From the IMG/VR virus record IMGVR_UViG_3300045988_047713, positions 1-30,652 of that record: a stretch of DNA of 30,652 nucleotides; one strand, 5' to 3'. The position numbers were made by a program, and so were the translations under genes. This document shows positions 10,349-30,652 of the stretch, piece after piece. Under the pieces are notes generated by a model. It saw only the letters and a program-made list of their open reading frames with translations. It was not told the DNA's origin and did not search any database. Position 1 is the first letter of the stretch; every line of letters starts with the position of its first letter. Source of the stretch: a virus (lineage: Duplodnaviria > Heunggongvirae > Uroviricota > Caudoviricetes).

Positions 10349-10984
10349 ATGAAAATTTCAGACCGGGCTAAAAGAGCTGCTCTGGAGTTAACAACCGATC
10401 AACTACGCTTCGCTAACCTGTGGTTAGATCGTGTCAATAACGGCTTCAGCAACGCTCAGTGCGTCTTACACGCTTATCCGGGGCATAAAGACCCTGACGC
10501 AGCTAAAGTCACCGCACACCGCCTCCTGTCGAATAGGAAGGTGTTGAACTATCTGGACGCGATGGGAAGTCATGCGCTTGAGTCTGTCGGGGAATCGTTA
10601 ACGAGTCGTGTCGAGTGGTGGAAACGAGCGGCAAGCACGGCTGAAGAATTACTGGAACCGTATTGTCAGCGCGTAATCGTCCCTGGTGAAGACGACACAG
10701 AAGCGAAACACCTGTGGGTGAACAGTACCGACGATATCCCCAGCCATCTTCAACAGTACGTAGTTTGCTACAAGCGTTACATGCTGGGCGGATACATTCT
10801 GGTGACGCGTGAATTGTTCGATCCGAAAACTCGTGCAAAAGCGTCTGAACAACTGGATAAAATCACCGGGAACAGTATCGACCGTGTGGAATTGTCTGGT
10901 GTGGTTGGTAACGTGGTTCAGAGTGTTCCTGAAGGTGCAACTATCGACGATATCGCGCAACTGTATCAGAAGGCGCTTAAATAG
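10349..10984 (+). CDS. terminase small subunit (TerS)
   Basis: 211 aa from ATG 10349 (GGGAGA RBS); N-terminus LTTDQLRFANLWLDRVNNGFSNAQCVLHAYPG...AHRLLSNRKVLNYL fits the small-terminase HTH pattern (LT.KQ.RF...A...AGYS...LL.N.KV). Confidence 0.65.
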   Translation: MKISDRAKRAALELTTDQLRFANLWLDRVNNGFSNAQCVLHAYPGHKDPDAAKVTAHRLLSNRKVLNYLDAMGSHALESVGESLTSRVEWWKRAASTAEELLEPYCQRVIVPGEDDTEAKHLWVNSTDDIPSHLQQYVVCYKRYMLGGYILVTRELFDPKTRAKASEQLDKITGNSIDRVELSGVVGNVVQSVPEGATIDDIAQLYQKALK

Positions 10985-10993
10985 GCGGTTGTT

Positions 10994-11028
10994 CCGGCTT
11001 AAATCGTGCCGGAAACCGTTTGCGTTTT
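10994..11028 (+). terminator. weak terminator-like hairpin downstream of TerS
   Basis: CCGGC-N9-GCCGG stem followed by a T-rich stretch (GCGTTTTCG); T-run is separated from the stem. Confidence 0.25.
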
Positions 11029-11098
11029 CGATAAACAAGGTTAGGTGGTGCAAGTGTACTGTTGAAGGTGTTAAGTTCGTCAGAGAGCGTTTTAGAAA

Positions 11099-11116
11099 GC
11101 CCGGAACTAACCGGGC
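11099..11116 (-). terminator. rho-independent terminator for the minus-strand rdgC operon
   Basis: Hairpin GCCCGG-AACTAA-CCGGGC; on the minus strand followed by TTTCTAAAA. Confidence 0.45.
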
Positions 11117-11178
11117 GTATGTTCATTATTCGTGATTATTACTACGTATCATCTGGTAGTTTTCAGCATCACTACGTT

Positions 11179-12093
11179 TCATCGTTTAGCCTCCCCACCC
11201 AAAGCAGTGATAAGTTGTTTGATCAGTGCCTGAAGTTCACCTGTCATCAGTACAAAATCAGCGTCAAATCGTGCCAGACTGTCTTCAAGGTCAATATCGT
11301 CGTTCTGGCACATCAGTTCGTCGCAGAATTTCACACGGTTTAACGTCATGCTGTCAGTTAGCGTAAACGTTACCCGCTGCTGCCAGTCCATCGCCAGCTT
11401 TGTAACGACTTTCCCGGCTTCAATATGCGTGGCTATTTCGTCACTGGTTAAATCCTGTTTTTTAACACGTGCAACACCGCCGTCAGTCAGGATCGCTTTC
11501 AGTTCCGCAGAATCACCCATTGTAAAACCTGTTGGCGCGTTTCCTGAACGTACCCACTCCGTTGTTGTCAGTTCAACAGGGTTTTCAGTTGTCAGTGGGA
11601 CTACAGGCAGACTACCCAGGGATTTACGCAACAGTGCTAATGCGTCTTCAGCCCGTTTAGCACTGGACGCATCAACCACGATCAACCTGTTAGTGATATC
11701 AATCCACAACTGTGTACGACTGTTTTTAACGAACGCTCGTGGTAACAGACTGTGTAACACTTCATCTTTCAGCGCGTCTTTCTCTGTTTTCTTCAGCTTA
11801 CGCGCCTGTTCAGCTTCCAGTTTGGCGATTCGCGCGTTCAGATGTTGTTTAATGACCGGACCCGGAATAATCTTTTCCTGTTTCTGGATGGTCAGCAGAT
11901 ATTGCCCGTTAGCCTGGTGAACCAGTGTATGATGTTGTTCAGTTGCCGGAACCCAACCAGTACGCGTCATATCCTGTGAACCGCACGGGGTAAATTGAAA
12001 CGCACACAGGCTGTCTTCCAGTGTTGGTAACTGGACCATTAATGCCATTGGGTTAGTCAGACGATAAATGATTGCGTTTTTAAAGAAGTTCAT
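11179..12093 (-). CDS. rdgC: recombination-associated protein RdgC homolog
   Basis: 304 aa; N-terminus [12 protein letters not shown] and overall length match bacterial RdgC (E. coli RdgC is about 303 aa, N-terminus MLWFKNLMVYRL as recalled); similarity judged from memory, not by search. Confidence 0.75.
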
Positions 12094-12290
12094 AGTTGTT
12101 TTCCTGTTATAACGTCAGTTAATGGTTTAAACGAATCATCGGTGATTGTTGAATTTAAATATTCGCAGACAGCTTTAACAATCCCAGCATGTGTCATTGG
12201 TTCATCTTTATATGACGACTCAAAACTAAACCCCGTGAATAGAATCTCACCACCATTATTAGTTACTGTTCCAAATCGTGTAATTTTCAT
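12090..12290 (-). CDS. hypothetical protein (66 aa)
   Basis: ORF with ATGA overlap to rdgC; same operon. Confidence 0.5.
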
Positions 12291-12292
12291 GA

Positions 12293-12487
12293 CTAGTCGA
12301 TATCCTGTGGATTGACTTTAACGGATGTTTGAATTGCTACAGAAGGTGAATAACCAATACAGGTAAACTCCACACATTCAGCTTCAACAATCAAACCTGT
12401 TTTAACAGCAGAGTTGATAGCCGTGTTTAATTCTGCTGTCAGACGTTTAATTTTATCCTGATGTTCTAATGCTTCAGACAGTTTCAT
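12293..12487 (-). CDS. hypothetical protein (64 aa)
   Basis: ATG at 12487 (MKLSEALEH...); the track start at 12496 is a TTG. Confidence 0.5.
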   Translation of the reverse strand: MKLSEALEHQDKIKRLTAELNTAINSAVKTGLIVEAECVEFTCIGYSPSVAIQTSVKVNPQDID

Positions 12488-12633
12488 GATAACCAATACC
12501 TCACTAAATTATTAGTTAGATTATCCAGCGCCAGAAAGAAATTGACAATGAATATGAGTCCTAACATTCCCACTAACCACGGTAATAGTTTAACGACCCA
12601 TAATGGTATTTTTGAAATCAGCCAGAAAATCAT
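12484..12633 (-). CDS. small membrane protein (49 aa)
   Basis: ATG 12633, hydrophobic MIFWLISKIPLWVVKLLPWLVGMLGLIFIV; ATGA coupling on both sides. Not in ORF track. Confidence 0.35.
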   Translation of the reverse strand: MIFWLISKIPLWVVKLLPWLVGMLGLIFIVNFFLALDNLTNNLVRYWLS

Positions 12634-12785
12634 TTCCTGTTCCTTCTTTTCTTCGCCTCGCGTCGGGCTTTTGCAATACCTGTTTTACGATGTGGTTGTT
12701 TACGGTCAGTAATAAGTCGTTGTGGTGGAATACCCCACAATGTGTTAGTGGAACTTAACAGTTTAATCGCGTAATCAAGAATCAT
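12630..12785 (-). CDS. small basic protein (51 aa)
   Basis: ATG 12785 with GGTGA RBS; C-terminal KARREAKKRRNRK. Not in ORF track. Confidence 0.3.
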   Translation of the reverse strand: MILDYAIKLLSSTNTLWGIPPQRLITDRKQPHRKTGIAKARREAKKRRNRK

Positions 12786-12892
12786 ACGTTCACCACTTTT
12801 AAATCAGGTGTCAGGCTACGATGGTCATGATGACCGTTCATGGTAAATGAGAAAGTGTAATCGCACTGTTCACCGTTGAACGTGAAGGGGAT

Positions 12893-13048
12893 TTAAAACC
12901 CTGTATCGTCAGTGATGCGAACTTTAACCGGGTATTCAGCTTGCGGATCGACCGCTACAACAGTACCGAACGGTTGAGATTTGCGACGTGCGAGAATTTC
13001 TAACAGTCGTGGACTGGTGATTTCTACGTGTTGACCAGTTTTAAACAT
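12893..13048 (-). CDS. small hypothetical protein (51 aa)
   Basis: Internal ATG 13048 with GGAG RBS; the track start at 13075 would lie at the predicted transcription start of promoter copy 4. Confidence 0.4.
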   Translation of the reverse strand: MFKTGQHVEITSPRLLEILARRKSQPFGTVVAVDPQAEYPVKVRITDDTGF

Positions 13049-13080
13049 GGTGATAACTCCAGTTGTTTTACACAAATTGA

Positions 13081-13124
13081 AGTCTATCTGATGATGTGTA
13101 AACCGTCAAGAATTATTTTAAATT
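13081..13124 (-). promoter_or_regulatory. conserved sigma70-type promoter, copy 4 (minus strand)
   Basis: -35 TTGACG (13109-13104), 17-bp spacer, -10 TAGACT (13086-13081), UP element TAAAATAATTC; drives the rdgC operon. Confidence 0.55.
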
Positions 13125-13299
13125 GTCCGTCACTGTCTGCAGCATAGCAAATGCCGTGACTGTATATTGTCGCAGTTCGTGTAATGCGTTGATAGTCTGA
13201 GCATTGGTTACGAACACGCAGGTCATACCCGGACTGTATAATCAGCCAGGTTGCAATGATGGCGAGTAATTTTAAAACGTATCTGAACATGTTCCACAC
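13084..13299 (-). CDS. small hydrophobic protein (71 aa), possible membrane/secreted
   Basis: AGGAG RBS upstream of ATG 13299; N-terminal hydrophobic LKLLAIIATWLIIQS. Confidence 0.5.
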   Translation of the reverse strand: MWNMFRYVLKLLAIIATWLIIQSGYDLRVRNQCSDYQRITRTATIYSHGICYAADSDGQFKIILDGLHIIR

Positions 13300-13351
13300 T
13301 CCTGTTTGATAGTTTCAGGGTAGTGTGGAACTGGTGAAGATGGTATAGGAT

Positions 13352-13750
13352 TTACGATAATTTAACAGTTAATCCGGCGTTGGTCAGAACGTTAGCGACA
13401 TCACGCACACCAGCTTCATATCCGTCTATAGGTGTTGCGGGTGATTTAACACAAATGCCAGCATGCTTTGGTAATTCAATTACCAACTGTTCCCGACTGG
13501 CTTTCCACATGTCCCACGCGCGATTCAAACGATCGCCTTCTTCCACGGTGTACTCGTCATCTTTCCTTAATTTTTCTAAGACGTTTTTTGGTGTTCCGTA
13601 TTTGTCTGAATAACACGCTTCAAACTGTTCACGACTCTTATCCACTTTTTCAACCCTCCACCCATATTTAGCACGATTCATAGCGGTCCGTTCATCATTC
13701 GTGGTGAACAGTACGCGCCCGGATTTATGACAAATGTTCCAAGTCGTCAT
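13352..13750 (-). CDS. hypothetical protein (132 aa)
   Basis: ORF track; no recognised motifs. Confidence 0.5.
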   Translation of the reverse strand: MTTWNICHKSGRVLFTTNDERTAMNRAKYGWRVEKVDKSREQFEACYSDKYGTPKNVLEKLRKDDEYTVEEGDRLNRAWDMWKASREQLVIELPKHAGICVKSPATPIDGYEAGVRDVANVLTNAGLTVKLS

Positions 13751-13802
13751 TTCGCTAATACACCAATAATGAAAATTAGCATGTAGAATAAAACATTACG
13801 GG

Positions 13803-13961
13803 TCATAATTCATAAACCTTAAAACTACCGCCTGAATAACGATGTTTATTACACAACTTACAACGGTGTTCCTGAGTGGCGTAATTACGTTCATCTCCGT
13901 GGATAGTACGATACAAATACCATTCGTGTTTGCAGAATAATCGTTTGAGAAATATCTTCAT
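13803..13961 (-). CDS. small Cys/His-containing protein (52 aa), zinc-finger-like
   Basis: ATG 13961 with AAGGTG RBS; CKHEW...HRCKLCNKH. Not in ORF track. Confidence 0.35.
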   Translation of the reverse strand: MKIFLKRLFCKHEWYLYRTIHGDERNYATQEHRCKLCNKHRYSGGSFKVYEL

Positions 13962-13968
13962 AGTTCAA

Positions 13969-14286
13969 TCACCTTTTTAACACATCACGACAATCACACA
14001 ATAGACGAACATATGTTAATTTACGTTCATCTAACAACGCCGCCATGTTGTTAGCCTCATTTGCGAGGAATTCTAGCGCGTCTTTTTCAGAACAAAAACA
14101 GTGATAAGAGTTTTTGAGTAATACACGACCTTTATCGCTGTAACGACATTTAACACGCCAACCTTTTGGTGTTTTATTTATAATCTCATATTGTTCAATA
14201 TAATGATGGACATCAAGAGCTTTATATTTATCACTACAAGTAGGTTTGCGGATAAACCACATGTTTTGGTTATCAGATACATTCAT
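13969..14286 (-). CDS. hypothetical protein (105 aa)
   Basis: Internal ATG at 14286 chosen because it overlaps the upstream stop; the track ORF extends to 14343. Confidence 0.45.
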   Translation of the reverse strand: MNVSDNQNMWFIRKPTCSDKYKALDVHHYIEQYEIINKTPKGWRVKCRYSDKGRVLLKNSYHCFCSEKDALEFLANEANNMAALLDERKLTYVRLLCDCRDVLKR

Positions 14287-14489
14287 TATTTGACTCCATG
14301 ACCTGGTGCAAAACAAACTGTATTGTTTTCTTTGAAAACCCAACCAGCTTTTTTAGCCTGTTTCAGACAATCACGAAAGTTTTTACCACCGAACGAAGTA
14401 ACCTCAGTTGCGAAAAATGGACCTTTAGGTTTTTTACATACGGCGCAATCACAGTAAAGGTCCATTGAATAACCACTAACAACCATCAA
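14286..14489 (-). CDS. small Cys-rich protein (67 aa)
   Basis: CDCAVCKK ... VCFAPGH; ATGA overlap with the upstream gene. Confidence 0.5.
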   Translation of the reverse strand: MMVVSGYSMDLYCDCAVCKKPKGPFFATEVTSFGGKNFRDCLKQAKKAGWVFKENNTVCFAPGHGVK

Positions 14490-14704
14490 TAACCCCTTTT
14501 AATCTTCCCCAATGCTTGTTGCACAATCTGCCAGGACGATAACATGAATAATTGCGCGTATTGTCCCAGTGCTAAATTTCGTGGTTTATCCTGGTAAGCG
14601 TAAATGGTCGCAATGTCATCAGCTTCCAGACGGATCCGCCACGGTGTCAGAGTTGGTTTATCACCCATGTTCGACGCGCTCCAGTAGTTCACGAATGTTT
14701 TCAA
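14486..14704 (-). CDS. hypothetical protein (72 aa; possible internal start at 14668)
   Basis: ORF track; overlaps the next ORF by 44 nt unless the internal Met is used. Confidence 0.45.
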   Translation of the reverse strand: MKTFVNYWSASNMGDKPTLTPWRIRLEADDIATIYAYQDKPRNLALGQYAQLFMLSSWQIVQQALGKIKRGY

Positions 14705-14984
14705 TTACACGTTGTTTTGTCTGAGTAGTGACACATACACCATCAGTGCGCCCAAAAGTTTCTAACACAGTTTGAAGTGCTTGATACATTTCAGGACTGT
14801 TTAACATTAATGACAGGTTACCCCGGAGTTCCTGGAGTTTTCCTTGTTCTTCGTTTGGTAAGTAACAAGGGTCTTCCATTTTAATAATCACTTGCGCGAT
14901 TGCCCCGTGGTCTGGTGATGAAATACTCACATGATTTTCAACCCATCCTTCATCTTTAAACCACGGTAATTGTGAACATTTCAT
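14661..14984 (-). CDS. hypothetical protein (107 aa)
   Basis: First gene downstream of promoter copy 5 on the minus strand. Confidence 0.5.
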   Translation of the reverse strand: MKCSQLPWFKDEGWVENHVSISSPDHGAIAQVIIKMEDPCYLPNEEQGKLQELRGNLSLMLNSPEMYQALQTVLETFGRTDGVCVTTQTKQRVIENIRELLERVEHG

Positions 14985-15214
14985 ACCTGTAACCCTCTTG
15001 TTTTTTGTTTAGTGACAAGATATCTCTTCAACCCGTCGCAACTAATTTCACAATCCCCGCAGGAACCACCATCCAACCAGATGATGCATAGTGTGTGATT
15101 TCGTGGGGTGAGTTACGCTTTATACTCACCGTAGCGCCTGACAATCAGCGGTATCTTCAGCCGGACAATTCCGGGTTACTACATACTTGGTCAGGTATCT
15201 TGTCTATGACAACA

Positions 15215-15258
15215 ACTATACAGATACATGAGCAATCTGTCAAGAATTATTTTAAACC
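15215..15258 (-). promoter_or_regulatory. conserved sigma70-type promoter, copy 5 (minus strand)
   Basis: -35 TTGACA (15243-15238), 17-bp spacer, -10 TATAGT (15220-15215), UP element; about 220-nt leader to ATG 14984. Confidence 0.55.
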
Positions 15259-15319
15259 TCTGTTACCACCTGTCACCCGTGGTAAACTGTACAGAACAGT
15301 TACAAACGGACCGATAATC

Positions 15320-17083
15320 ATGAATAAGTTTACTGGAAATATTCATAATTACCCGCGTTGGCGGGATGCCTACGCAAATGACGAACGTATCTGGCGAAAA
15401 GGTCAGCCACGACCGGATTATAAACAGTGTTACATTGACCGCATTAACCTGTTAAATCGTATGCGCACGGATCGGGCAATTGTCCCGGTGCTGAAAAAGT
15501 ATTACGAAACAAACCCGGTAGCGTTTATCCTCGACTGGGCGTTTACTTACGACCCGCGTAACGTCGGTACTGAGTACACGCCTAACATGCCTTTCTGCCT
15601 TTTCGAACGTCAGATCGACATGGTTCAGTTTGTTTATGAAGCGCTTGAAGACAAAGAGAAAGGACTTTGGGAAAAATCGCGAGACTATGGCGCGACCTGG
15701 GTAGCCTGTGGTTTGTCCGTATGGGCGTGGCTGTATCGTCCTGGTTCTTCAGTTGGCTGGGGATCACGTAAAGAACAGCTTGTTGATAAACTGGGCGACC
15801 CGGATAGTATTTTTGAAAAGATTCGCCAGATTATCCGCGCATTACCACCGGAATTACGCCCGGTCGGTCTGCGTGAAAAAGACCATCTGGTTTACATGAA
15901 ATGTATCAACCCAGAAAACGGTGCAACAATTACTGGTGAAGCTGGCGATAACATCGGTCGTGGTGGTCGTAAATCTGTCTATTTTCTCGACGAGGCAGCA
16001 CACGTAGATCGTCCTGAACTGATCGAAGCGTCGTTGTCAGCTAACACCAACGTTCGTATCGACATCAGTTCAGTTAACGGTGTTGGTAACGTTTTTTATC
16101 GTAATCGTAAAGCTGGTCTGGAATGGGAACCAGGTAAGAAATTACCCCGTGGTAAATTGCGTGTCATGGTTCTGGACTGGCGTGATCACCCGGCTAAAGA
16201 TGACGAATGGTATAAGCGAGAAAAACAATCGTTCGCTGAAAAAGGTTTACAGCATATTTTCGCACAGGAAGTTGACCGCGATTATGCCGCTGCTGTTCAG
16301 GGCGTGTTGATTAAAGCTGAATGGGTACGCGCTGCTTTTGACGCGTTCCGTGACACAGAATGGCGCAAAGCTAACGGACTACTTACACCAACAGGTCAGC
16401 GTATCGCCGGACAGGATGCCGCAGACGGTGGTGAAGACGCAAGCGCACTGGTAATTGCTCACGGTGTATTCCTGACACATCTGCAACTTGACCACAGGGG
16501 CGCTGAACTGGCTGCACCAGGAATGTTGACGATGGCTAATATGCTGGGTGTTGATGAATACTGGTACGAAGTTAACGGTGTTGGTACAGGCGTTAAAGTA
16601 GCGGCAAATGACCGGAAAGATACTCTACGCTTCCGTGTGCGCCCGTGGTTACCGAACGGAAAAGTGGTGGATCCAGGTGGTGATATTATCGGTGGTACGA
16701 AACCTGGCGATAAAGACCGTAAATCAAACAAAGATTATTTCTCAAATTATAAAGCACAGGCATCGTGGGCGTTACGCCTGCGATGTCAGCGAATTTATAA
16801 ATGGTATGTGGAAGGTCAACCACAGGATCCAGACGAAATTATTCTGATTGATCCATCACTGGAAAATGCACAACGGTTAGAGGCTGAGTTAAGTCAGCCA
16901 ACATATACCAGTAACGGTGCCGGGAAGATTGTGATCGACAAAAAACCAAATGGAAGTAAGTCGCCAAACTTTTTCGATGCTGCGGTTATTGCACTATCAC
17001 CAAAACGCACTGAATTTGTCGAAGAACCATTTACTGGTGGTGTGAATCCTGTTGGTACGCCTGATTACGGTGACATTTTTTAA
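15320..17083 (+). CDS. terminase large subunit (TerL)
   Basis: 587 aa from ATG 15320; ERQIDMV...GLWEKSRDYGATWVACGLSVWAWLY (Q-motif plus deviant Walker A), Walker B VYFLDEAAH, nuclease-domain acidic cluster GQDAADGGEDASALVIAHG. The in-frame extension to 15095 is rejected because it would encode across promoter copy 5. Confidence 0.8.
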   Translation: MNKFTGNIHNYPRWRDAYANDERIWRKGQPRPDYKQCYIDRINLLNRMRTDRAIVPVLKKYYETNPVAFILDWAFTYDPRNVGTEYTPNMPFCLFERQIDMVQFVYEALEDKEKGLWEKSRDYGATWVACGLSVWAWLYRPGSSVGWGSRKEQLVDKLGDPDSIFEKIRQIIRALPPELRPVGLREKDHLVYMKCINPENGATITGEAGDNIGRGGRKSVYFLDEAAHVDRPELIEASLSANTNVRIDISSVNGVGNVFYRNRKAGLEWEPGKKLPRGKLRVMVLDWRDHPAKDDEWYKREKQSFAEKGLQHIFAQEVDRDYAAAVQGVLIKAEWVRAAFDAFRDTEWRKANGLLTPTGQRIAGQDAADGGEDASALVIAHGVFLTHLQLDHRGAELAAPGMLTMANMLGVDEYWYEVNGVGTGVKVAANDRKDTLRFRVRPWLPNGKVVDPGGDIIGGTKPGDKDRKSNKDYFSNYKAQASWALRLRCQRIYKWYVEGQPQDPDEIILIDPSLENAQRLEAELSQPTYTSNGAGKIVIDKKPNGSKSPNFFDAAVIALSPKRTEFVEEPFTGGVNPVGTPDYGDIF

Positions 17084-17090
17084 ACAGTGT

Positions 17091-17120
17091 GGCGGGATTA
17101 TTCCCGTCATTTTCTTTTTT
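17091..17120 (+). terminator. rho-independent terminator after TerL
   Basis: Stem GGCGGGA / TCCCGTC (one G-U pair), 4-nt loop, followed by ATTTTCTTTTTT; the T-run doubles as the UP element of promoter copy 6. Confidence 0.5.
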
Positions 17121-17156
17121 AATTCTTGACAAATTACATTATAAATGTTTGTAAAT
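17112..17156 (+). promoter_or_regulatory. conserved sigma70-type promoter, copy 6 (plus strand), -10 ambiguous
   Basis: -35 TTGACA (17126-17131) with conserved flanking AATTC...AATTAC; candidate -10 TTGTAA/TGTAAA at 17149-17155. Confidence 0.45.
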
Positions 17157-17190
17157 TATCTGTTAGATTAATGTAACACGTCTATACTCC

Positions 17191-24528: not shown

Positions 24529-25028
24529 ACCCGTCCTGTTGATCCAAACCCGCCATTACGCTGACTATCAACATCTGGTAATTCTTCCACTTCAACCAGA
24601 TTAACAGGTTCAACACGTTCAACCATAAGCTGACAAACGCGTTCACCGTCTGCGATAGTCTGTAATTTCTGCCCGTGGTTAGTCAGCGTAACGTAGTATT
24701 CTTCTTTATAATCACGATCACCGATACCCACACAGTTGATCAGTGACAAACCATTTTTAAGACTCATGCCGGAACGCGGGTAGAATTTAATGCAATATCC
24801 GTTATCAACTGACATTTTCAGACCAGTGGGGATCATAGCGCGGTCGCCGGGCCATAATGCGATTGTTCCTGCAACAACCGGACGTTCCACTTTAGCGCCT
24901 GATTCTGTGAATATGGTTACCGATTCTTCCCACAGACAAGCACGAACGTCTAACCCTGCGCTGTCTGGTGTTGCACGTGTCGGAAGTTCAGCGTGGGGTG
25001 TTAGTTTTTTGATATACAGGTTAGTCAT
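24525..25028 (-). CDS. dut: dUTP diphosphatase (trimeric dUTPase)
   Basis: 167 aa; motifs AGLDV, YPRSGMS, GIGDRDY, C-terminal GGFGSTGR. Confidence 0.8.
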   Translation of the reverse strand: MTNLYIKKLTPHAELPTRATPDSAGLDVRACLWEESVTIFTESGAKVERPVVAGTIALWPGDRAMIPTGLKMSVDNGYCIKFYPRSGMSLKNGLSLINCVGIGDRDYKEEYYVTLTNHGQKLQTIADGERVCQLMVERVEPVNLVEVEELPDVDSQRNGGFGSTGRV

Positions 25029-25189
25029 TGTTTAATTCCTCTTGTTTTACTAGTAAAAAAATCAATTTCAAGAGAACCTTGTCGATCTAAAATCTCGGTG
25101 TATTTACGGACACGAATTGGTAAAAGTTCACCACTATCAATCAGATCCGCGATTTCTCGCAATTGTTTGGCAACATCTTCATTAGTCAT
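25025..25189 (-). CDS. small hypothetical protein (54 aa)
   Basis: ATG 25189 with GAGGA RBS; stop overlaps the dUTPase ATG. Not in ORF track. Confidence 0.35.
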   Translation of the reverse strand: MTNEDVAKQLREIADLIDSGELLPIRVRKYTEILDRQGSLEIDFFTSKTRGIKQ

Positions 25190-25223
25190 TGTTTGATTCC
25201 TCAGTGTGTTTCGTTCGTGACAA

Positions 25224-25268
25224 ATGTTAGTGTGATCGCTTGCAATGTGTCAAGAATTATTTTAAACT
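25224..25268 (-). promoter_or_regulatory. conserved sigma70-type promoter, copy 9 (minus strand); possible divergent partner for the gene at 25297
   Basis: -35 TTGACA (25253-25248), 18-bp spacer, -10 TAACAT (25229-25224). Plus strand: TTGCAA (25240-25245), 17 bp, TAAACT (25263-25268), about 30 nt upstream of ATG 25297. Confidence 0.5.
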
Positions 25269-25296
25269 TCTGTCAACGTTAACCAATGAGGAATAA

Positions 25297-26055
25297 ATGA
25301 TGTTTGAACATCCGTGGAACATACCTGCATATGATGCTGAAAGTGAAAAACAATCACTTGACTATCAAATGAAAACACAACAAGTAGACTGGAGTGAAGC
25401 GCCAGACTGGGCTACATGTGTTGTTCTTAATAAGACAACAAACACTTTTGCATGGTCTGATGGTTCAATGTACGCACCAATTTTAAGAAATCCGCCACAA
25501 ATTATGGAGAATGCTGATGACTTTGAAATCTTTGAAAAACGCCCTTGTGGTCCAGCAACACCTGTCAAAACAAAACTGTTAATGACACCGAAAGCCCGTG
25601 GTAATACTTACGAAGAATTCATTGCGACCGGGTGGAATGACGACCAGTTAGTCGAACATGGTTATGCTGTTCGTATTACAGACAAACGTTCCTGGTCACC
25701 AATGACCGTCGGAACTGAAACAATTACACCACCGTCAAACTGTCGGTGCACATTCACACCCGTTCAACAACCATCAACAGCGTCTGATTTACTGAAACAG
25801 GCTGAACAGCTACTGACAGAACGTGGTAAGCAGTATGACACGTCTAGTCAGGAACGTTCGTCAGCTAAAATAGTTGCTGCGTTTAACACAATTACCGGGC
25901 GCGATTTAACACCAGGTGAAGGATGGTTGTTCCTGATGTTGTTAAAAGCGGTTCGTTTCTATTCCAACACTGAAACACCACATCGTGACAGTCTGGAAGA
26001 CCTGATCAGCTATGCTGCATTACACGCAGAGGAATATCTTAACAATGAACGGTGA
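25297..26055 (+). CDS. hypothetical protein (252 aa)
   Basis: GAGGA RBS; no confidently recognised domain. Confidence 0.5.
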   Translation: MMFEHPWNIPAYDAESEKQSLDYQMKTQQVDWSEAPDWATCVVLNKTTNTFAWSDGSMYAPILRNPPQIMENADDFEIFEKRPCGPATPVKTKLLMTPKARGNTYEEFIATGWNDDQLVEHGYAVRITDKRSWSPMTVGTETITPPSNCRCTFTPVQQPSTASDLLKQAEQLLTERGKQYDTSSQERSSAKIVAAFNTITGRDLTPGEGWLFLMLLKAVRFYSNTETPHRDSLEDLISYAALHAEEYLNNER

Positions 26056-26227
26056 ACAAGCATTCGACCTTCTGGTTAAATACGACATTATTGTTATTCA
26101 CTGTGACCGTGAACAAATCGTTTTCACGGACGATCTTTGTTATGAAGAACCTTATGACGGTGATAAACGGTCTGCCACGATTCGGTTAATCGAACGTGTG
26201 GCACGTGACAGAGGGGAACTATTATAA
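26045..26227 (+). CDS. hypothetical protein (60 aa)
   Basis: ATG 26045 overlapping the upstream stop; the track ORF starts at an upstream in-frame codon. Confidence 0.4.
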   Translation: MNGEQAFDLLVKYDIIVIHCDREQIVFTDDLCYEEPYDGDKRSATIRLIERVARDRGELL

Positions 26228-26421
26228 TGGTTCAAACTATTTCTGAATTACTACCCACCGTTTATGGCAACGTGACAGAACTTGCCAGGCGGATTGGGTG
26301 TAACAAAGCGACAGTTTATAAATATATGGATGACACCAATGGTGAATTTCACGCGGTAGTGAATGGTAAGTTGATGGTCAGACCAGGTTTTAAAGGACGT
26401 TATACTCGTGACAAAAGATGA
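26227..26421 (+). CDS. small helix-turn-helix DNA-binding protein (64 aa)
   Basis: TELARRIGCNKATVYKYM resembles an HTH recognition helix pair. Confidence 0.5.
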   Translation: MVQTISELLPTVYGNVTELARRIGCNKATVYKYMDDTNGEFHAVVNGKLMVRPGFKGRYTRDKR

Positions 26422-26551
26422 AAAATTATTACGTGAACTTGAAATAGACTACGAACGAGCGCAAAAAGCGTTAAAGTTTCTGGAAGAACAGATCCGCGAA
26501 GTTAAGAACCGCATTCAGGGAACTGAAAAACGTAATCTTCCACGCCCGTAA
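26408..26551 (+). CDS. small coiled-coil-like peptide (47 aa), GTG start
   Basis: Open frame filling the gap before the terminator; LRELEIDYERAQKALKFLEEQIREVKNRI. Weak. Confidence 0.25.
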   Translation: MTKDEKLLRELEIDYERAQKALKFLEEQIREVKNRIQGTEKRNLPRP

Positions 26552-26555
26552 CACG

Positions 26556-26564
26556 TGATATAAT
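26556..26564 (+). promoter_or_regulatory. extended -10 promoter for the MuF-like gene
   Basis: TG-A-TATAAT (TG 26556-26557, TATAAT 26559-26564); predicted start falls inside the left arm of the adjacent terminator hairpin. Confidence 0.45.
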
Positions 26565-26566
26565 CG

Positions 26567-26594
26567 GCCTCAGTGTGTTAACTGAGGCTTTTTT
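26567..26594 (+). terminator. rho-independent terminator abutting the MuF-like start codon
   Basis: GCCTCAG-N8-CTGAGGC followed by TTTTTT, then ATG at 26595; the right arm contains the GAGG Shine-Dalgarno of the downstream gene. Confidence 0.6.
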
Positions 26595-27554
26595 ATGGCT
26601 ACTAAAGACCCATACCCGGATATTTCAGACAAGTATGACGCTCGCATTCGCGAAGCACTTGATGTTGTGTGGGAAAACGTGCGTCGTAGTGAGTCGTTAG
26701 CTAACCTGGAATACATCATTGAAACTCAGGGTATTACCGGGCTACTCCCCATTCTTGAAACACTCCCTGATGAACTTAGTGCACAGTTGCGCCCGGTTAT
26801 TGAAGACGCGATCGCCGAATCAGGTCGTGTAGTCGTTCAGGTTTTACCGAAAGCGGCTGTGACAGGTCCGGTTGTGTTCAGTCTGGTCACCCCACAGGTC
26901 AGTACATACATCAACAACTATGTCGGACAACTGATCCGTGAAGTCAGTGACGAAACAGTCAAAGCTGTTCAGATTGCTGTTAACCAGGGTGTGGTAACCG
27001 GACGAAATCCGCGTCAGATAGCCCGTGATTTTCGATCATCAATAGGGTTAACCACACGGCAAGAAATGACGGTTCAACGTCTGCGATCAGCACTGGAAAA
27101 AGGTGAAGCAGGTTATATGAACAGTCTGACCACTGTTACAGACAGTGCGAAGAACGCTGTAAGTGCCGGGAAACTATCACAGGCGAAGATTGACCAGATA
27201 ATCGAACAGACACGCTTGCGTTACGTAAAACAGCGTACAGAGACAATAGCGCGTACTGAATCACTTCGTGCTGTATCAGTTGGTCAGGATCAGGCAATAC
27301 GTCAGGGACAGATTACCGGGGCTGTTAGTAATGAATTGCTGAAGCGCTGGTTATATAGAAAGGATGGTCGGACACGTGATGCGCATATTTCCACGGGTGA
27401 AACGAACGGTTGGATACCAATGGACAGACCGTTTTCAACGCCGTTAGGACCACTTATGTTTCCTCGTGATCCTAACGGTAGTGCCGCTAACGTGATTAAT
27501 TGTCGTTGCAGGGTACAGTATAGTTTGCCGGAAGATATAGGTTCATTGGGTTAA
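26595..27554 (+). CDS. head morphogenesis protein, Mu F / SPP1 gp7 family
   Basis: 319 aa; C-terminal region ...NGWIPMDRPF...ANVINCRCRVQY matches the conserved end of MuF-like minor head proteins. Confidence 0.7.
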   Translation: MATKDPYPDISDKYDARIREALDVVWENVRRSESLANLEYIIETQGITGLLPILETLPDELSAQLRPVIEDAIAESGRVVVQVLPKAAVTGPVVFSLVTPQVSTYINNYVGQLIREVSDETVKAVQIAVNQGVVTGRNPRQIARDFRSSIGLTTRQEMTVQRLRSALEKGEAGYMNSLTTVTDSAKNAVSAGKLSQAKIDQIIEQTRLRYVKQRTETIARTESLRAVSVGQDQAIRQGQITGAVSNELLKRWLYRKDGRTRDAHISTGETNGWIPMDRPFSTPLGPLMFPRDPNGSAANVINCRCRVQYSLPEDIGSLG

Positions 27555-27781
27555 TCAGGTTCACGCCAGTCAAGAGGTCGCACATCACATAACAGACGAA
27601 CATTATCTTCAAATTTTATGTTTATCCTGTGATGTGCAGTATCATTTTCATAAACAGAAGGCCATATTTCATAACCCTGAACAGTTCGTGCCACCCACTT
27701 GTTAACGCTTGCCAGATGGATCAACACTTCACAACCAACTGGAGGAAGGTTTTTACCATCCCAAATCTGTTTCATTCCCAT
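27551..27781 (-). CDS. small protein with WDG..LPPVG domain (76 aa)
   Basis: QIWDGKNLPPVGCEV...W parallels QQWDGEGLPPVGTVCEW in the ORF at 23738-24202. Confidence 0.45.
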   Translation of the reverse strand: MGMKQIWDGKNLPPVGCEVLIHLASVNKWVARTVQGYEIWPSVYENDTAHHRINIKFEDNVRLLCDVRPLDWREPD

Positions 27782-27786
27782 AGCGG

Positions 27787-28062
27787 TTACTCCTGTTTTT
27801 CACCACAGAACGGACAATAAGACATTTTGATGTTGGTTCCCAGGCGTGTGAAGTTCTTCGCCAGTTCACCGTTTTTCTTTTTAGCACGGTATGCAAGACG
27901 ATATTTCAACATAACGTGAATTTTACCAGACGTCAGACCGAAACACTGATTATCCCAGCCCACTTTATCAAACAGGTTAGTGCTGACTTCCGAACCTACT
28001 GGTACTTTTTCCATCAGACGTTTTTGAAGTTCGTCACCAATTTTTTTCATACAATCACACAT
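27787..28062 (-). CDS. zinc-ribbon protein (91 aa)
   Basis: N-terminal CDC and C-terminal CPFCG; GAGGT RBS. Confidence 0.5.
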   Translation of the reverse strand: MCDCMKKIGDELQKRLMEKVPVGSEVSTNLFDKVGWDNQCFGLTSGKIHVMLKYRLAYRAKKKNGELAKNFTRLGTNIKMSYCPFCGEKQE

Positions 28063-28223
28063 TACGCGTACCTCGATAGTCGTCTTAATTTAACGATCAA
28101 CCTTGTGACTTTACTCCAGTCAGATTCAGTAAAATCGTCCACATCTTTAGCCCATAACTCATTGACATGTCGTGGGTTATATGGTTCTTTCTTGACAGGC
28201 TGTTTCCGTTTCTTTTTACCCAT
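28062..28223 (-). CDS. small basic protein (53 aa)
   Basis: ATG 28223; MGKKKRKQPVKK...; TAATG overlap with the downstream gene. Not in ORF track. Confidence 0.3.
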   Translation of the reverse strand: MGKKKRKQPVKKEPYNPRHVNELWAKDVDDFTESDWSKVTRLIVKLRRLSRYA

Positions 28224-28226
28224 AGG

Positions 28227-28610
28227 TTATTCCCCAGGGTGACGGATATTCAGATCCGGGAGAATTTGCATCGGGTTAAACGTAACACGATAACGATACT
28301 GATCTGTTGGTGAAGGGTCTATTTGTTCAATGAAATAAGTTACCTCCGTGGTTAACCCCATAAAGTGTTTCTTAACGTCGTTCGGACCAGTTTTACAGGT
28401 GATTTCGATCTCTTTGCTAGTGTTCTCACGGGCACAACGACCTTCGATAGACAAAAGATACTCACCGTTACGAACGTTATAGAAAACGATACGACGATTT
28501 ACTTCAAAGTTAGCTGCAGCGGTTGCAACGTTACGACTGGCAACATCAGCAGCATTATCACAGGCTGTCAAGGTTGTTGTCAGTAATGCACACAGGATCA
28601 GTTTCTTCAT
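28227..28610 (-). CDS. lipoprotein (127 aa)
   Basis: Signal peptide MKKLILCALLTTTLTAC with lipobox LTAC. Confidence 0.6.
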   Translation of the reverse strand: MKKLILCALLTTTLTACDNAADVASRNVATAAANFEVNRRIVFYNVRNGEYLLSIEGRCARENTSKEIEITCKTGPNDVKKHFMGLTTEVTYFIEQIDPSPTDQYRYRVTFNPMQILPDLNIRHPGE

Positions 28611-28625
28611 TTTAGTGTCTCGGAG

Positions 28626-29009
28626 TTATTTAATGATTAATGTTGGTTGTAAGTCTTCTTCGTACCACGTCCAACCAATACACGCACCATCTTCAGCATC
28701 AACATATGGTTTCAACCAATCGATAAATTGTTCAATCTCACCACCATAATTTTTAATATCACTACGACTAAAAACATATTGAGTATCGGTGAAATCAAAT
28801 TTAGGACAACTATTTATTACTTCCGGGTGATGATAAAAACTGCTACAACTACCAATAAAATTCCATCTGGGAAGACTGAAAAACTTATGTTGTGGTAGTT
28901 TCTCTGGTTCTTTTTCACCACAGAACATGTGTGCAATAATAGCTTTCACATCCACGGGTGCATCTACTTTAATCTGACACTTCAACACTAATTCGGTATA
29001 CATTCCCAT
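28626..29009 (-). CDS. hypothetical protein (127 aa)
   Basis: ATG 29009 with GAGGA RBS; the track start at 29084 lies inside promoter copy 10. Confidence 0.5.
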   Translation of the reverse strand: MGMYTELVLKCQIKVDAPVDVKAIIAHMFCGEKEPEKLPQHKFFSLPRWNFIGSCSSFYHHPEVINSCPKFDFTDTQYVFSRSDIKNYGGEIEQFIDWLKPYVDAEDGACIGWTWYEEDLQPTLIIK

Positions 29010-29055
29010 TTTCACATCCTCATTCACCAGCAACCCATTGTCGCTCCCTGTGATA

Positions 29056-29099
29056 AAGATATACCACAGTTTGCAATCCGTCAAGAATTATTTTAAAGA
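29056..29099 (-). promoter_or_regulatory. conserved sigma70-type promoter, copy 10 (minus strand)
   Basis: -35 TTGACG (29084-29079), 17-bp spacer, -10 TATCTT (29061-29056), UP element. Confidence 0.55.
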
Positions 29100-29101
29100 T
29101 A

Positions 29102-29188
29102 CAGCTAATACAGAACGTGTACTAACTGTACATGGTTTTACATAGGTTTCATGATTTTGAGTTGCAGCTAATACACGTTCTGTATTAG
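29102..29188. promoter_or_regulatory. two palindromic operator-like sites (CTAATACA-N5-TGTATTAG family)
   Basis: 29102-29128 (CAGCTAATACAGAACGTGTACTAA) and 29167-29188 (GCTAATACACGTTCTGTATTAG, perfect 8-bp arms); architecture related to the TAGTGCACGTTGTGCATTA sites at 9781-9955. Confidence 0.5.
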
Positions 29189-29200
29189 TAGATCATAAAT

Positions 29201-29310
29201 TCATAGATTTCGTCATGTTTATTTTTTAACCAACCCTTCTCTATCTTATTCTTTTTATTACCTTTTTATAGAAAACATAATAAACATAGATAAATAGAAG
29301 AGTAGTATAA
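29201..29310. repeat. AT-rich intergenic element, copy B of the duplicated sequence
   Basis: About 90 percent identical to 9968-10085 with two small indels. Confidence 0.8.
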
Positions 29311-29382
29311 GTAGTATAAGTTGCTGTAAGTAGGAGAGGTTTAAAAGGTATAGGGGGGTCGCATACTTCCCATGAATCTATA

Positions 29383-29424
29383 CGTAAAATAATTCTTGAC
29401 GGATTACACCGACACAACTACCCT
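29383..29424 (+). promoter_or_regulatory. conserved sigma70-type promoter, copy 11 (plus strand)
   Basis: UP element, -35 TTGACG (29396-29401), 17-bp spacer, -10 TACCCT (29419-29424). Confidence 0.5.
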
Positions 29425-29454
29425 GTGGTTAAGAGAACAAGAAGGGTTGAATGT

Positions 29455-29781
29455 ATGGATCCGAACATCAGAGTTGCTACAGACGAATTCATTCGTCGCG
29501 CCCGTAAAATTCACGGTGATCGTTACGACTACTCATTCAGCATTGTTGAAGATAGTTCCAGCACAGTGGTTATTATTGACCGTGAAACTAACACAGTGTT
29601 TTTCCAGGTTGTCGCTGAACATCTGGACGGTGTTGAACCGGTAACGACTGCTGTTGAACCGATCAAGAATCTTTCTGAGATATTCGGTAACGTCGTAAAC
29701 AGCGTGTATCACCAGTGCATTTATTCATCTGAAATGTTAGAATTTAGTCATGTTGAAACAATACGAGGACAATCCCCGTGA
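29455..29781 (+). CDS. hypothetical protein with degenerate HGD.YDYS-type N-terminal domain (108 aa)
   Basis: ATG 29455 with AAGGG RBS; FIRRARKIHGDRYDYSFS resembles a motif recalled from the N-termini of some phage endonuclease-associated proteins, but the usual Cys/His ligands are absent. Confidence 0.45.
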   Translation: MDPNIRVATDEFIRRARKIHGDRYDYSFSIVEDSSSTVVIIDRETNTVFFQVVAEHLDGVEPVTTAVEPIKNLSEIFGNVVNSVYHQCIYSSEMLEFSHVETIRGQSP

Positions 29782-30188
29782 TTAACGTAAAAGTTAATAA
29801 GGTTGACAACTCACTACGTATGGTATTCGGTTGGGGTAGTATCTGTAAAAAACGTAATCAGGAGACAGGCCAGTTAGAAATTTACACAGACACGGACAAC
29901 GAGCAATTTCCCGAGGATGTCACTCTGAAAGCATGGTTGGATTTCATGAATTCTGATCAGCGCATCATGGACAATATGCACAATGAACAACCTGTTGGGA
30001 AAGTTGTGTTTGCGTTTCCGATGACTGAAGACATTGCGGCAAGTTTTGGGCTGGTTGATAAACTGGATCAGACAGGCGTCATTGTTGGTACGTTGATAAC
30101 TGATGACGAAGTTTTGAAAAAGTTTCAGACTGGTGAATATACGGGATATAGTATCGGTGGAACTGCATATTATGAGGATGTGGAATAA
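29778..30188 (+). CDS. hypothetical head-assembly-associated protein (136 aa)
   Basis: ORF track; ATGA coupling; position in the head gene block. Confidence 0.5.
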   Translation: MINVKVNKVDNSLRMVFGWGSICKKRNQETGQLEIYTDTDNEQFPEDVTLKAWLDFMNSDQRIMDNMHNEQPVGKVVFAFPMTEDIAASFGLVDKLDQTGVIVGTLITDDEVLKKFQTGEYTGYSIGGTAYYEDVE

Positions 30189-30652
30189 TGCGTACAGATG
30201 GTACTAATCATTTACGCCGCGCTAAATCGATGAAGATCGGTTTTCTGTCCGGCGTGACAAAACCTGCTCACGAGGGAGCAAATGCTCTTGTTCTTAAATC
30301 ACATTCAGAACCGCCTGCTGTTGTTCTTTTAAAGTCAACATTTAGTGCAGCACTGGCTGAAAAAGAACTTGAACAGAAAGTTCGTGATTTCCTCTCTAAT
30401 TCGTGGATGTTGAACGATGCGCTTTATGAAGCAGCAGAGGATATTGCAAAAGATGATTCTGTTACCGATAAACAAGCAGCATTGCGTGACGCGGTAAATG
30501 AATATATTATAACGTTGCAACAGGCCGCTGGTATTTCGATGAATAAAGCGAAAGGTGGTAAAACTGAAGGCGGTGAAGTTTTCCCGGCATCTGATTATGC
30601 ATATGTACCAGATCCAGAAAAACCTTCAACCTGGAAACTTCGTTTAACAGCT
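30188..30652 (+). CDS. hypothetical head-assembly protein, 5' part only (runs off the window end)
   Basis: ATG 30188 in TAATG overlap; frame open to position 30652; FPASDYAYVPDPEKPSTWKLRL resembles motifs seen in phage scaffold/head proteins. Confidence 0.45.
   Translation, partial: MRTDGTNHLRRAKSMKIGFLSGVTKPAHEGANALVLKSHSEPPAVVLLKSTFSAALAEKELEQKVRDFLSNSWMLNDALYEAAEDIAKDDSVTDKQAALRDAVNEYIITLQQAAGISMNKAKGGKTEGGEVFPASDYAYVPDPEKPSTWKLRLTA

Follow-up and report, generated by a model that had tools for sequence, protein, structure and literature searches.

According to Casjens et al. (2014, PMC4153490), phage 9NA is virulent, packages its DNA by a pac-type headful mechanism, has relatives that are mosaically related to it, and carries blocks of non-structural genes interleaved with its packaging and head genes. 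The interleaved layout is an already known, published peculiarity of the 9NA-like phages, and thus it is not a discovery of the present work. Here we describe this layout in the IMG/VR virus record IMGVR_UViG_3300045988_047713, of which the whole stretch of 30,652 nucleotides (positions 1 to 30,652, hereafter the window) was analysed. In the window the genes for the small terminase (TerS), the large terminase (TerL), the portal, the MuF-like head morphogenesis protein and the head operon are separated from each other, in this order, by four blocks of small genes, which we call slots A to D.

Two other systems offer points of comparison. Promoter-early stem-loop (PeSL) cassettes are found in the hyperplastic regions of T4-type phages (Arbiol et al. 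2010, PMC2839356; Comeau et al. 2014, PMC4122927). Like those regions, the window has variable stretches of small genes between core blocks and repeated, strong sigma-70-like early promoters (predicted in our case), and indels or replacements between close relatives are bounded by repeats, which here applies to the large events and not to the small indels. Unlike them, the window comes from an unrelated siphovirus, has another motif sequence and has its packaging and head genes split one by one. The second system is the moron. Classic morons are a temperate-phage concept; the morons of lambdoid and HK97-type phages described by Juhala and colleagues in 2000 are said to be typically single prophage-expressed genes in otherwise contiguous late operons. 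A sequence-only reading of the window had regarded its cassettes as a hotspot of such moron-like accessory insertions, each with its own promoter and terminator. The interpretation that we consider fairly probable is that the slots are early transcription units headed by one class of promoter (class E), that the structural genes have -10-type boxes of their own (class L), and that the repeat formed by the class-E promoters also serves as a patch for genetic exchange.

Conservation of the interleaved order

The window belongs to a 9NA-like (Nonanavirus/Sashavirus) siphophage of E. coli. Megablast with positions 10300-30652 returned 52 phage records, the best of which was E. coli phage vB_EcoS_AVIO78A (AVIO78A; 86% covered at 95.7% identity). 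The Salmonella members Sergei, Solent, Sasha, SP069 and 9NA matched at 84-87%, with 52% of the region aligned to 9NA at 84% nucleotide identity, and the Klebsiella members matched at approximately 81%. Position 10300 of the window is position 227 in the deposited genomes, whose records count TerS (starting at 10349 in the window) as 'gene 1'. Positions 1-10300 form the end of the replication module, with a helicase (1340-3001), an exonuclease (3043-3549) and a primase-polymerase/D5 helicase (4211-6565). The window shares with the described 9NA cluster (PMC4153490) its lineage (84-96% nucleotide identity), gene order and four mostly opposite-strand slots, and it is unlike other 9NA-like members in its own cargo, in a gene named H1 before the head operon and in the absence of the distal sub-cassette of slot A.

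The genes of the window were compared by tblastn with seven annotated 9NA-like genomes, ten loci from viral contigs and four outgroups, the latter taken from a tblastn search against the phage collection; the search of the viral contigs, made with a single protein, returned close relatives only. One of the ten loci is 9NA itself and another (L018, IMGVR_UViG_3300022758_000167) is probably an assembly chimera. The apparent lack of slot A in this locus was rejected and the locus ignored on that point, as an inverted TerS and slot A (approximately positions 2800-8400) are there fused into a truncated TerL that begins at residue 191.

TerS (10349-10984), TerL (15320-17083), the portal (21344-22699) and the MuF-like protein (26595-27554) lie on the plus strand at the positions given by the sequence-only reading, and family matches bear out their identities (phrog_51 at 1.3e-11, phrog_2 at 4.9e-17, Portal_Mu at 6.6e-24 and Phage_Mu_F at 6.1e-11, respectively). 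Pfam gave no match for TerS and only a sub-threshold match for TerL, and both were settled by PHROGs. A longer open reading frame (ORF) from 15095 was rejected as the TerL gene because it runs through the promoter repeat described below. Wherever a locus extends to them the structural genes were found, at 82-100% identity within the group, a range that also holds for TerS by itself, whose identity to the annotated TerS proteins among the relatives is 87-100%, at 31-63% in Tbat2_2 and PmiS-Isfahan, and at 39-43% in the Vibrio phage.

The 9NA-like order, TerS - TerL - portal - MuF - protease/scaffold/capsid with interspersed small genes, is present in the window, and the same interleaved order was found in all 9NA-like genomes examined (E. 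coli, Salmonella, Klebsiella and uncultivated contigs). It extends to more distant phages whose portals are 60% and 43% identical: Proteus phage PmiS-Isfahan (Gorganvirus), Flyfo phage Tbat2_2 and a phage of the Vibrio 1.268.B type. All four slots are filled in every genome examined and none is ever empty. Their sizes range among the relatives from 0.9 to 5.4 kb (A), 1.7 to 5.7 kb (B), 3.0 to 4.9 kb (C) and 1.1 to 3.5 kb (D); in the window they are 4335, 4260, 3895 and 2223 bp long, a total of 14.7 kb compared with 5.1 kb of structural genes. Eleven of the approximately 41 small ORFs in the slots (27%) occur in at least 15 of 17 loci (A06, B07, B08, C02, C03, C05, dUTPase, C08, C09, C11 and D02), and since these are distributed over slots A to D, every slot has a core. 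Another 16 ORFs (39%) are intermediate, RdgC and NinH being present in 12 of 17 each, and 14 (34%) occur in at most six of the 17 relatives, with B01, B02, B09-B11, D04 and D05 among the rare ones. None of the 17 relatives has a counterpart of A02, and A09 and C07 are each found in a single one (for C07 this is locus L013). As the slots are never empty and each contains genes conserved in all relatives, the interleaving is an ancestral, maintained architecture with a core and not an accumulation of recent insertions. The synteny comparison thus leaves the hotspot view proposed from the sequence about half right: the order is conserved lineage-wide and the cargo is partly core, and the rest of the cargo turns over quickly.

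In the outgroups the slots are kept and their content is not, the cassettes of the distant relatives being almost wholly different from those of the window. PmiS-Isfahan and Tbat2_2, like the window, have opposite-strand cassettes in all slots with a repeated UP/TTGAC promoter of their own, and a dUTPase again follows the portal. In the Vibrio phage, TerL and the portal are separated by seven small genes, which unlike those of the window are co-directional; the MuF-like gene is preceded by a mixed block and the head genes by a single gene. Arthrobacter phage Salgado (Laroyevirus, 31% portal identity) has five genes between TerL and the portal, and a further six separate the capsid genes from the protease next to the portal; it is unlike the window in that all blocks are co-directional and the portal and MuF/protease genes are adjacent.

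Several units of the slots nevertheless look like morons, and it could be argued that all cassettes are such, i.e. independent, fairly recent insertions of dispensable cargo into a once contiguous late operon. The block B01-B05 (17107-19210) has its own promoter and terminator and is missing in loci L013-L015, and contigs lacking it have a 100% identical portal. H1 is present together with its own promoter copy in six of the 17 relatives, and C07, A02 and A09 are hardly found outside the window. AVIO78A has, beyond the region covered by the window, gene 057 (L022, 26533-26805), a one-gene minus-strand unit that is placed between the genes for the tail tube and the tail assembly chaperone and has a full promoter copy and a bidirectional terminator; it is the cleanest moron-like unit of that genome. 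B01-B05, H1, C07 and gene 057 resemble morons in being additional genes between neighbouring morphogenesis genes, with a promoter and terminator of their own, a patchy presence and a lower GC content. A base composition distinct from that of the neighbours, as expected of morons, was found for the slots in general (GC 0.38-0.42 compared with 0.47-0.50 in TerS, TerL, portal and MuF), the gap being modest and the plus-strand cassette of slot B reaching 0.45. As an account of the slots as wholes, however, we consider a moron origin unlikely. Even at 43% portal identity no relative has any of the four vacant, and each holds universal genes; the cargo includes the DNA-metabolism enzymes RdgC and dUTPase; the DNA polymerase operon is headed by a copy of the same predicted promoter; and the phage group is virulent, so that there is no prophage state in which morons would be expressed. 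The slots differ from morons also in being multi-gene and permanently occupied. What remains of the insertion hotspot is therefore the high turnover, seen in the 14 rarely shared ORFs and in the sub-units that are present or absent, within slots that are never vacant. Neither an integrase nor a repressor was seen among the genes of the window, in which no systematic search for either was made.

The AVIO78A, PDP46, Sergei and BASEL papers make no mention of the interleaving or of the promoters of this group, and the second box class and the indels bounded by promoters are likewise absent from the later papers on E. coli members. In an abstract of 2019, Zeng and colleagues reportedly gave a 40-gene core for seven phages and discussed mosaicism.

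Promoter-like elements of the slots and of the structural genes

The conserved promoter that had been noted for each cassette is real and gives the strongest signal of the region. The cassettes are headed by a near-identical UP/-35 sequence, TAAAATAATTCTTGACRGATTRCA, and the motif AATAATTCTTGAC occurs in the window 11 times at up to two mismatches, compared with 1.27 +/- 1.07 occurrences in shuffled sequences (0 of 100 shuffles reached 11). The conserved stretch, TAAAATAATTCTTGAC(R)GATT(R)CA, extends over approximately 25-33 nt, and the identity between two copies reaches 100% over 25 nt. In the sense of the genes that follow, an AT-rich UP-like element comes first and then a -35 hexamer TTGAC(A/G), and in 10 of the 11 copies a TAnnnT hexamer is found 17-18 nt downstream. 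All 11 copies stand at the head of a gene block.

On the minus strand, predicted class-E promoters head slot A (15215-15261; UP, TTGACA, 17 nt, TATAGT; 11/12 consensus; motif at 15239-15251), the minus-strand cassette of slot B (21233-21279; TTGACG, 17 nt, TATGCT; motif copy at 21257), that of slot C (25224-25271; TTGACA, 18 nt, TAACAT; motif copy at 25249) and slot D (29056-29102; TTGACG, 17 nt, TATCTT; motif copy at 29080). Internal ones lie in slot A (13081-13127; UP, TTGACG, 17 nt, TAGACT; motif copy at 13105) and in slot C (23456-23502; motif copy at 23480), and two further minus-strand copies of the motif were found at 1226 and 1289. The plus-strand copies precede B01-B05 (17118), the small-gene block after the primase (6587) and H1 (29388-29433; TTGACG, 17 nt, TACCCT), the last being fused to a class-L-like element, ACCCTGTGGTTAAG, at 29420-29433. 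No class-E copy in the window faces TerS, TerL, the portal, C08 or MuF.

The class-E motif takes up corresponding positions in AVIO78A, PJ16, Sergei, Sasha, SP069, 9NA and Klebsiella phage VLCpiS10a. In the complete genome of AVIO78A, full copies head the leftward DNA polymerase operon and two small-gene blocks, and no capsid, tail or lysis gene is preceded by one. As class E heads the DNA polymerase operon and small-gene blocks and never capsid, tail or lysis genes, it is probably an early promoter class used by the host RNA polymerase. That the promoter of the cassettes also heads the DNA polymerase operon of AVIO78A points to the cassettes being ordinary early operons of a virulent phage. 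In Tbat2_2 and PmiS-Isfahan the cassettes are headed by lineage-specific versions of the same repeat. In PmiS-Isfahan the sequence that heads slot A agrees without a difference with that of slot B for 66 nt, leader and ribosome site included.

A different class of element was found before the structural genes. When the upstream regions were aligned over eight genomes, short invariant islands with variable flanking spacers were seen ahead of TerS, TerL, portal, MuF and the head operon. As the slots break up the series of structural genes and are mostly bounded by terminators, each structural gene carries a promoter-like element of its own; the separate promoters that the sequence-only reading had called for thus have candidates in these conserved boxes. 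The box of TerS is ACCCGTGGGTATCT (10298-10311, plus strand), 38 nt upstream of the ATG, a candidate late promoter with no -35 element. That of TerL is ACCCGTGGTAAACT (15275-15288, plus strand), 32 nt upstream of the ATG and part of the island ACCCGTGGTAAACTGTACAGAACAGTTACAAA. Before the portal the invariant sequence is CTGATATAACATACGTTAAGAA (21295-21316, plus strand), with the extended -10-like TGATATAAC, and before MuF there is the extended -10 element GTGATATAAT (26555-26564, plus strand). The box of the head operon is ACCCGTGGTTAACTCGCGAGGAA in genomes without H1; the version in the window, ACCCTGTGGTTAAG, lies behind the class-E copy. All these class-L boxes have the extended -10 form (TGnTAnAAY), no -35 element and a distance of 18-41 nt from the start codon. 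The form is TGATATAAY at the portal and MuF and ACCCGTGGTAAACT at TerS and TerL, with a close variant before the head operon. At up to three mismatches ACCCGTGGTWAACT occurs 21 times, compared with 5.1 +/- 2.0 expected, and its sole exact match in the window is the box before TerL. Equivalent boxes of an extended -10-like form were also found in the outgroups Tbat2_2, PmiS-Isfahan and the Vibrio phage, before TerL (TGTATAAT or CGTATAAT), before the portal (CGCTATACT, CGTTATACT or TGTTATACT) and before MuF (ACCCTGTGGTAAACT, TGTGCTAAGAT or TGCTACAAT). The class-L boxes presumably act later than class E or need a phage factor. A hairpin in the TerL leader (AACTGT/ACAGTT) was dropped as an RNA structure, as it is not compensated in the Klebsiella phage.

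The proposal that each cassette also has its own terminator holds for a part of them. A terminator-like hairpin with a U-rich tail follows TerS (10982-11034, plus strand; -20.9 kcal/mol, z -2.85). TerL has an intrinsic terminator (17089-17110, plus strand), which together with the next promoter forms a PeSL-like composite terminator-promoter element; one further terminator-promoter pair is annotated in AVIO78A, at 1451-1491. Hairpins with T tracts are found after B05 (19302-19321, plus strand) and, as a bidirectional terminator, between portal and C01 (22706-22727, both strands), and another follows C11. No terminator was found at the convergence of MuF and D01, and the hairpin after RdgC is weak. 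Every cassette has its own predicted promoter, and terminators are present for the plus-strand cassettes of slots B and C and shared between portal and C01, weak in slot A and absent in slot D.

These terminators bear on whether the structural genes need promoters of their own. They could instead be transcribed from one or two late promoters, situated for instance in the AT-rich regions before TerS and the head operon, by long plus-strand readthrough of the slots, antisense to the cassettes, with antitermination, the boxes then being regulator-binding or RNA-processing sites. It agrees with such a scheme that elaborate, co-evolving upstream regions are found solely before TerS and the head operon, that TerL, portal and MuF have only short boxes without a -35 element, and that class-L-like plus-strand matches occur inside minus-strand cassettes (24267 and 28344). 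We regard readthrough as quite unlikely, however, given the intrinsic terminators after TerS, TerL, B05 and portal and before MuF, and the recurrence of the extended -10 form (TGnTAnAAT), 18-41 nt from the ATG, before the same genes in diverged lineages. No antiterminator homologue was noticed, a systematic search for one not having been made.

The element before MuF (26555-26594, plus strand) combines the box and the terminator. Directly after the box, which there reads TGATATAAT, comes a hairpin (26566-26589; -19.2 kcal/mol, z -4.2) that at the same time follows C11, and then a T tract with the ATG immediately behind it. The 3' arm of the hairpin holds the only Shine-Dalgarno sequence of MuF, GAGG. 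The stem is conserved among the relatives and the loop sequence is variable, and the design of box, hairpin, T tract and ATG recurs at another gene in Tbat2_2 and PmiS-Isfahan and at gene 08 of the Vibrio phage. From this arrangement we infer a compact insulator. Transcripts coming from upstream (C08-C11) would stop at the hairpin, with the ribosome site hidden. A transcript from the box would start approximately 7 nt past it, inside the 5' arm, and therefore could not form the hairpin; lacking that arm, it would be translatable.

Gene turnover and the promoter repeat

Slot A measures 0.9 kb in Sasha and 5.4 kb in Sergei. Positions 1-1741 of the two genomes are 99.9% identical, and positions 1717-3569 of Sasha correspond to 6249-8101 of Sergei; the flanking alignments overlap by exactly 25 nt, and these are the promoter repeat. 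The difference of 4.5 kb, which in Sergei comprises 13 genes including RdgC, is therefore bounded by two direct promoter copies, one at each end. To the right of the joint the identity falls from 99.9% to 90.4%. A pairwise scan of eight genomes gave the same footprint, with an overlap of 27 nt, for an RdgC block of 2.1-2.2 kb that is absent in 9NA compared with AVIO78A and PJ16. An overlap that is exactly the repeat, with a direct copy at each end in the longer genome, is a specific footprint of repeat-mediated deletion or insertion. Sasha (L004) also has an insert at 3569-5174, 6-13 nt from a promoter copy. It is a free-standing 1.55-kb homing endonuclease gene on the minus strand, with the TerL terminator on one side and the plus-strand copy of the promoter on the other, and is unique to Sasha; H1 comes from the family of its N-terminal triple repeat.

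The recombinant joint was also constructed for each same-strand promoter pair, with pairs shifted by 100-600 nt as controls. Predicted joints were found spanning the junction in another genome in 22 of 269 cases, compared with 0, 1, 0, 0 and 0 of approximately 266 shifted controls, although the 22 partly reflect paralogous promoter-proximal flanks and not independent events. Some of the joints are deletions. In others, the slot-B promoter of another genome is followed by a flank that is otherwise transcribed from a slot-A promoter, which amounts to an exchange between slots.

There are several points that weigh against the combined reading of early units, -10-type boxes and an exchange patch. 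Clean independent promoter-bounded deletions number only two. Most of the small indels lie at gene boundaries with 4-21 nt of microhomology and not at promoter copies, as is the case for the single-gene indels of C04, C07, A02, 9NA gp23 and others. These points, together with the many joints that paralogous flanks can explain, would also suit a repeat that is a promoter only, at which junctions coincide since a conserved island bounds the alignments and intergenic sites tolerate breakpoints. That the repeat has no part in the exchange is in our opinion not likely, considering the exact 25-27 nt overlaps with terminal direct copies, the switch of identity at the Sasha/Sergei joint and the shifted controls, which gave 0-1 matches.

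Other objections concern the promoters themselves. A stem-loop stands beside only one of the 11 class-E copies (17118, with the terminator at 17089-17110) and the other ten are without one, so the analogy with PeSL cassettes is partial. The class-E copy at 29388 precedes the head operon too, and thus the two classes are not strictly partitioned. Class-L boxes occur also inside ORFs, for example at 6740, 7494 and 16145. For a promoter of the extended -10 kind the host RNA polymerase may suffice, and a temporal separation is for this reason not guaranteed; a literature search for transcription data on this group returned nothing relevant, and the proposed division into early and late is drawn from promoter type and gene content. 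A generic sigma-70 scan of positions 10000-29999 gave 43 matches compared with 43.2 expected, and a generic terminator scan of the same region 16 compared with 18.5, both at chance level overall; a signal was obtained only by motif-specific and comparative analysis.

With these reservations, the reading of the slots as early units that we favour may be outlined as follows. TerS, TerL, portal, MuF and the head operon keep their canonical one-strand order, interdigitated with four permanent slots. The slots would be ordinary non-structural, probably early, transcription units that mostly run in the opposite direction, each starting from a strong promoter of the sigma-70 type with a UP-like element. 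The promoter repeat would act as a portable homology patch by which blocks could be deleted, inserted and swapped between slots, as in PeSL regions. This regulatory and recombinational interpretation is a plausible addition to the known layout, and its novelty is uncertain.

Cargo, control regions and implications

That blocks of small, mostly minus-strand genes lie between each neighbouring pair of structural genes was seen in the ORF layout, in the GC skew, which is negative in every minus-strand block, and in the lower GC content. The labels given earlier to the cassettes (rdgC, Gly/His/Cys, dUTPase and lipoprotein) were accurate, as judged by family matches (RdgC at 1.9e-115, dUTPase at 1.4e-18, NinH at 1.6e-18 and the VG64-type lipoprotein at 3.9e-46) and by composition: B01 contains 29 Gly residues along with clusters of Cys, the tract HHHHHYHHGHH is found in B02, and the lipobox of D04 reads LTAC. 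An annotation artefact, with spurious minus-strand ORFs and structural genes separated merely by long spacers, is scarcely credible. It could draw on the doubtful ORFs D06 (29241-29417) and the long form of D05 and on the odd composition of B05, and it is already refuted by the RdgC, dUTPase and VG64 matches on the minus strand, by protein conservation across genera and by the PHROG matches of small ORFs; the GC skew also follows the strand.

The cassette of slot A (11179-14984, minus strand) contains RdgC (11179-12093) and approximately ten small genes, of which A06 is universal and A02 and A09 are absent or nearly absent elsewhere. Slot B consists of a plus-strand sub-cassette (17118-19321) with a class-E-type promoter (17118-17131), B01-B05 and the terminator at 19302-19321, and of a minus-strand cassette of seven genes (19327-21210), in which B07 and B08 are near-universal and B09-B11 patchy. 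Slot C likewise has a minus-strand cassette (22733-25189) with C01-C05, dUTPase (24525-25028), C07 and the internal class-E promoter, and a plus-strand sub-cassette (25297-26551) that encodes a DUF6378 protein, C09, NinH and C11. The cassette of slot D (27551-29009, minus strand) comprises D01-D03, with D02 universal, the lipoprotein D04 (28227-28610, Phage_VG64) and D05. The true start of D05 is the ATG at 29009; a TTG start at 29084 was rejected, as it extends the ORF through the promoter copy. This long form and D06 are doubtful because of promoter overlap or a lack of homologues. The PADLOC models gave no match with ten of the larger cassette proteins, and thus there is no recognisable defence cargo among these. 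Eight universal cassette genes and also A11 and B08 had PHROG matches solely to families of unknown function.

B05 (19129-19293) encodes 54 aa of an odd Cys/Phe-rich composition, and its 3' third is kept in contigs without the rest of B01-B05; it may be a non-coding leader or terminator sequence rather than a gene. The C07 segment of 140 bp (C07 itself being 25025-25189) is flanked by a 21-nt direct repeat, TTAGTCATTGTTTRATTCCTC (25021-25041 and 25182-25202), which is a duplicated ribosome-site and start region.

The ORF at 29455-29781 on the plus strand, from which the head genes had been said to begin, turned out to be H1, an accessory gene derived from the N-terminal repeat module of a homing endonuclease, and recognisable head genes start at 29778. 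H1 was rejected as a head gene on account of its patchy presence and its module match: it is one copy of a module of approximately 50 aa (FIxRARxxHGDxYDYS), of which the homing endonuclease of Sasha has three copies at its N-terminus (E 6e-11). It is also similar to a T5orf172-type gene in a Vibrio phage. The head operon (29778-30652, plus strand) starts with an XkdF-like protease domain protein (29778-30188), followed by a conserved protein of 420 aa, of which the first 154 aa lie within the window and the rest beyond its edge. Homologues of the first protein are called 'DNA methyltransferase' in RefSeq (9NA gp37, Sasha gp33) and in PHROG 1530. The Pfam match is to the XkdF-type prohead protease domain (Peptidase_S78_2 at 9e-8) and the position is the head of the capsid operon; the methyltransferase name was probably inherited from fusion proteins.

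Two AT-rich regions resemble each other, one upstream of TerS (9774-10348, 32% GC) with approximately ten palindromic T[GA]CACGTT[GC]TG[CT]A repeats, and one before the head operon (29103-29384, 31% GC) with an inverted operator-like pair (29105-29128 and 29165-29188). A block of 100-109 nt at 9969-10077 is repeated at 29202-29309 (109 nt at 93.6%). The palindrome is operator- or iteron-like, has approximately a dozen copies, often within GTTAGTGCACGTTGTGCATTAGCTGT, and these copies (9793-9953, 10224-10281 and 29100-29190) are confined to the two regions. Tbat2_2 (L011) has an equivalent pair (5352-5748 and 19698-20093, 398 nt at 92.7%) and TGCAAC-type iterons at the equivalent place, and shorter pairs are found in 9NA, SP069 and Klebsiella S10a. 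As the repeat differs between lineages and matches within a genome, the two elements evolve in concert. The pair is a candidate for a late-operon control platform, an origin or a packaging-related element.

A minus-strand ORF ending at 8919 probably has its true start at the ATG at 9737, with a class-L-like box (9753-9766, minus strand) 15 nt upstream, and it may therefore belong to the late class. Inside this ORF (8919-9737/9773, minus strand), a perfect 21-nt tandem repeat of 6.6 units, CTACAGGTGGTTCCACTCGTG, at 9044-9182 codes for a 7-aa repeat in a protein of approximately 270 aa. Scans of the window for tRNA genes and Rfam families gave no matches.

More tentatively, the observations may be extended to a wider proposal, which we put forward as a possibility with somewhat more doubt than confidence. 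The four slots would have been open since before the split of the enterobacterial, Proteus and Vibrio phages; a two-class promoter code would operate in which the late class is a -10-only box (ACCCGTGGTAAACT or TGATATAAT); the early promoter would double as a recombination linker; combined -10 and terminator elements would act as insulators; and the AT-rich pair would belong to the same circuit. If this is true, a PeSL-like system exists outside the T4 superfamily.

The genes A06, B07, C02, C03, C05, C09, C11 and D02 are kept across genera and are without known function, which makes them candidates for host takeover. If the repeat is both a regulatory signal and a homology patch, the PeSL mechanism of the T4-type phages would contribute to the plasticity of phage genomes more generally. 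Phages of this group are being isolated for biocontrol of E. coli, Salmonella and Klebsiella, and under the same condition the repeat would provide a guide to their engineering, indicating which blocks may be removed or swapped and at which joints.

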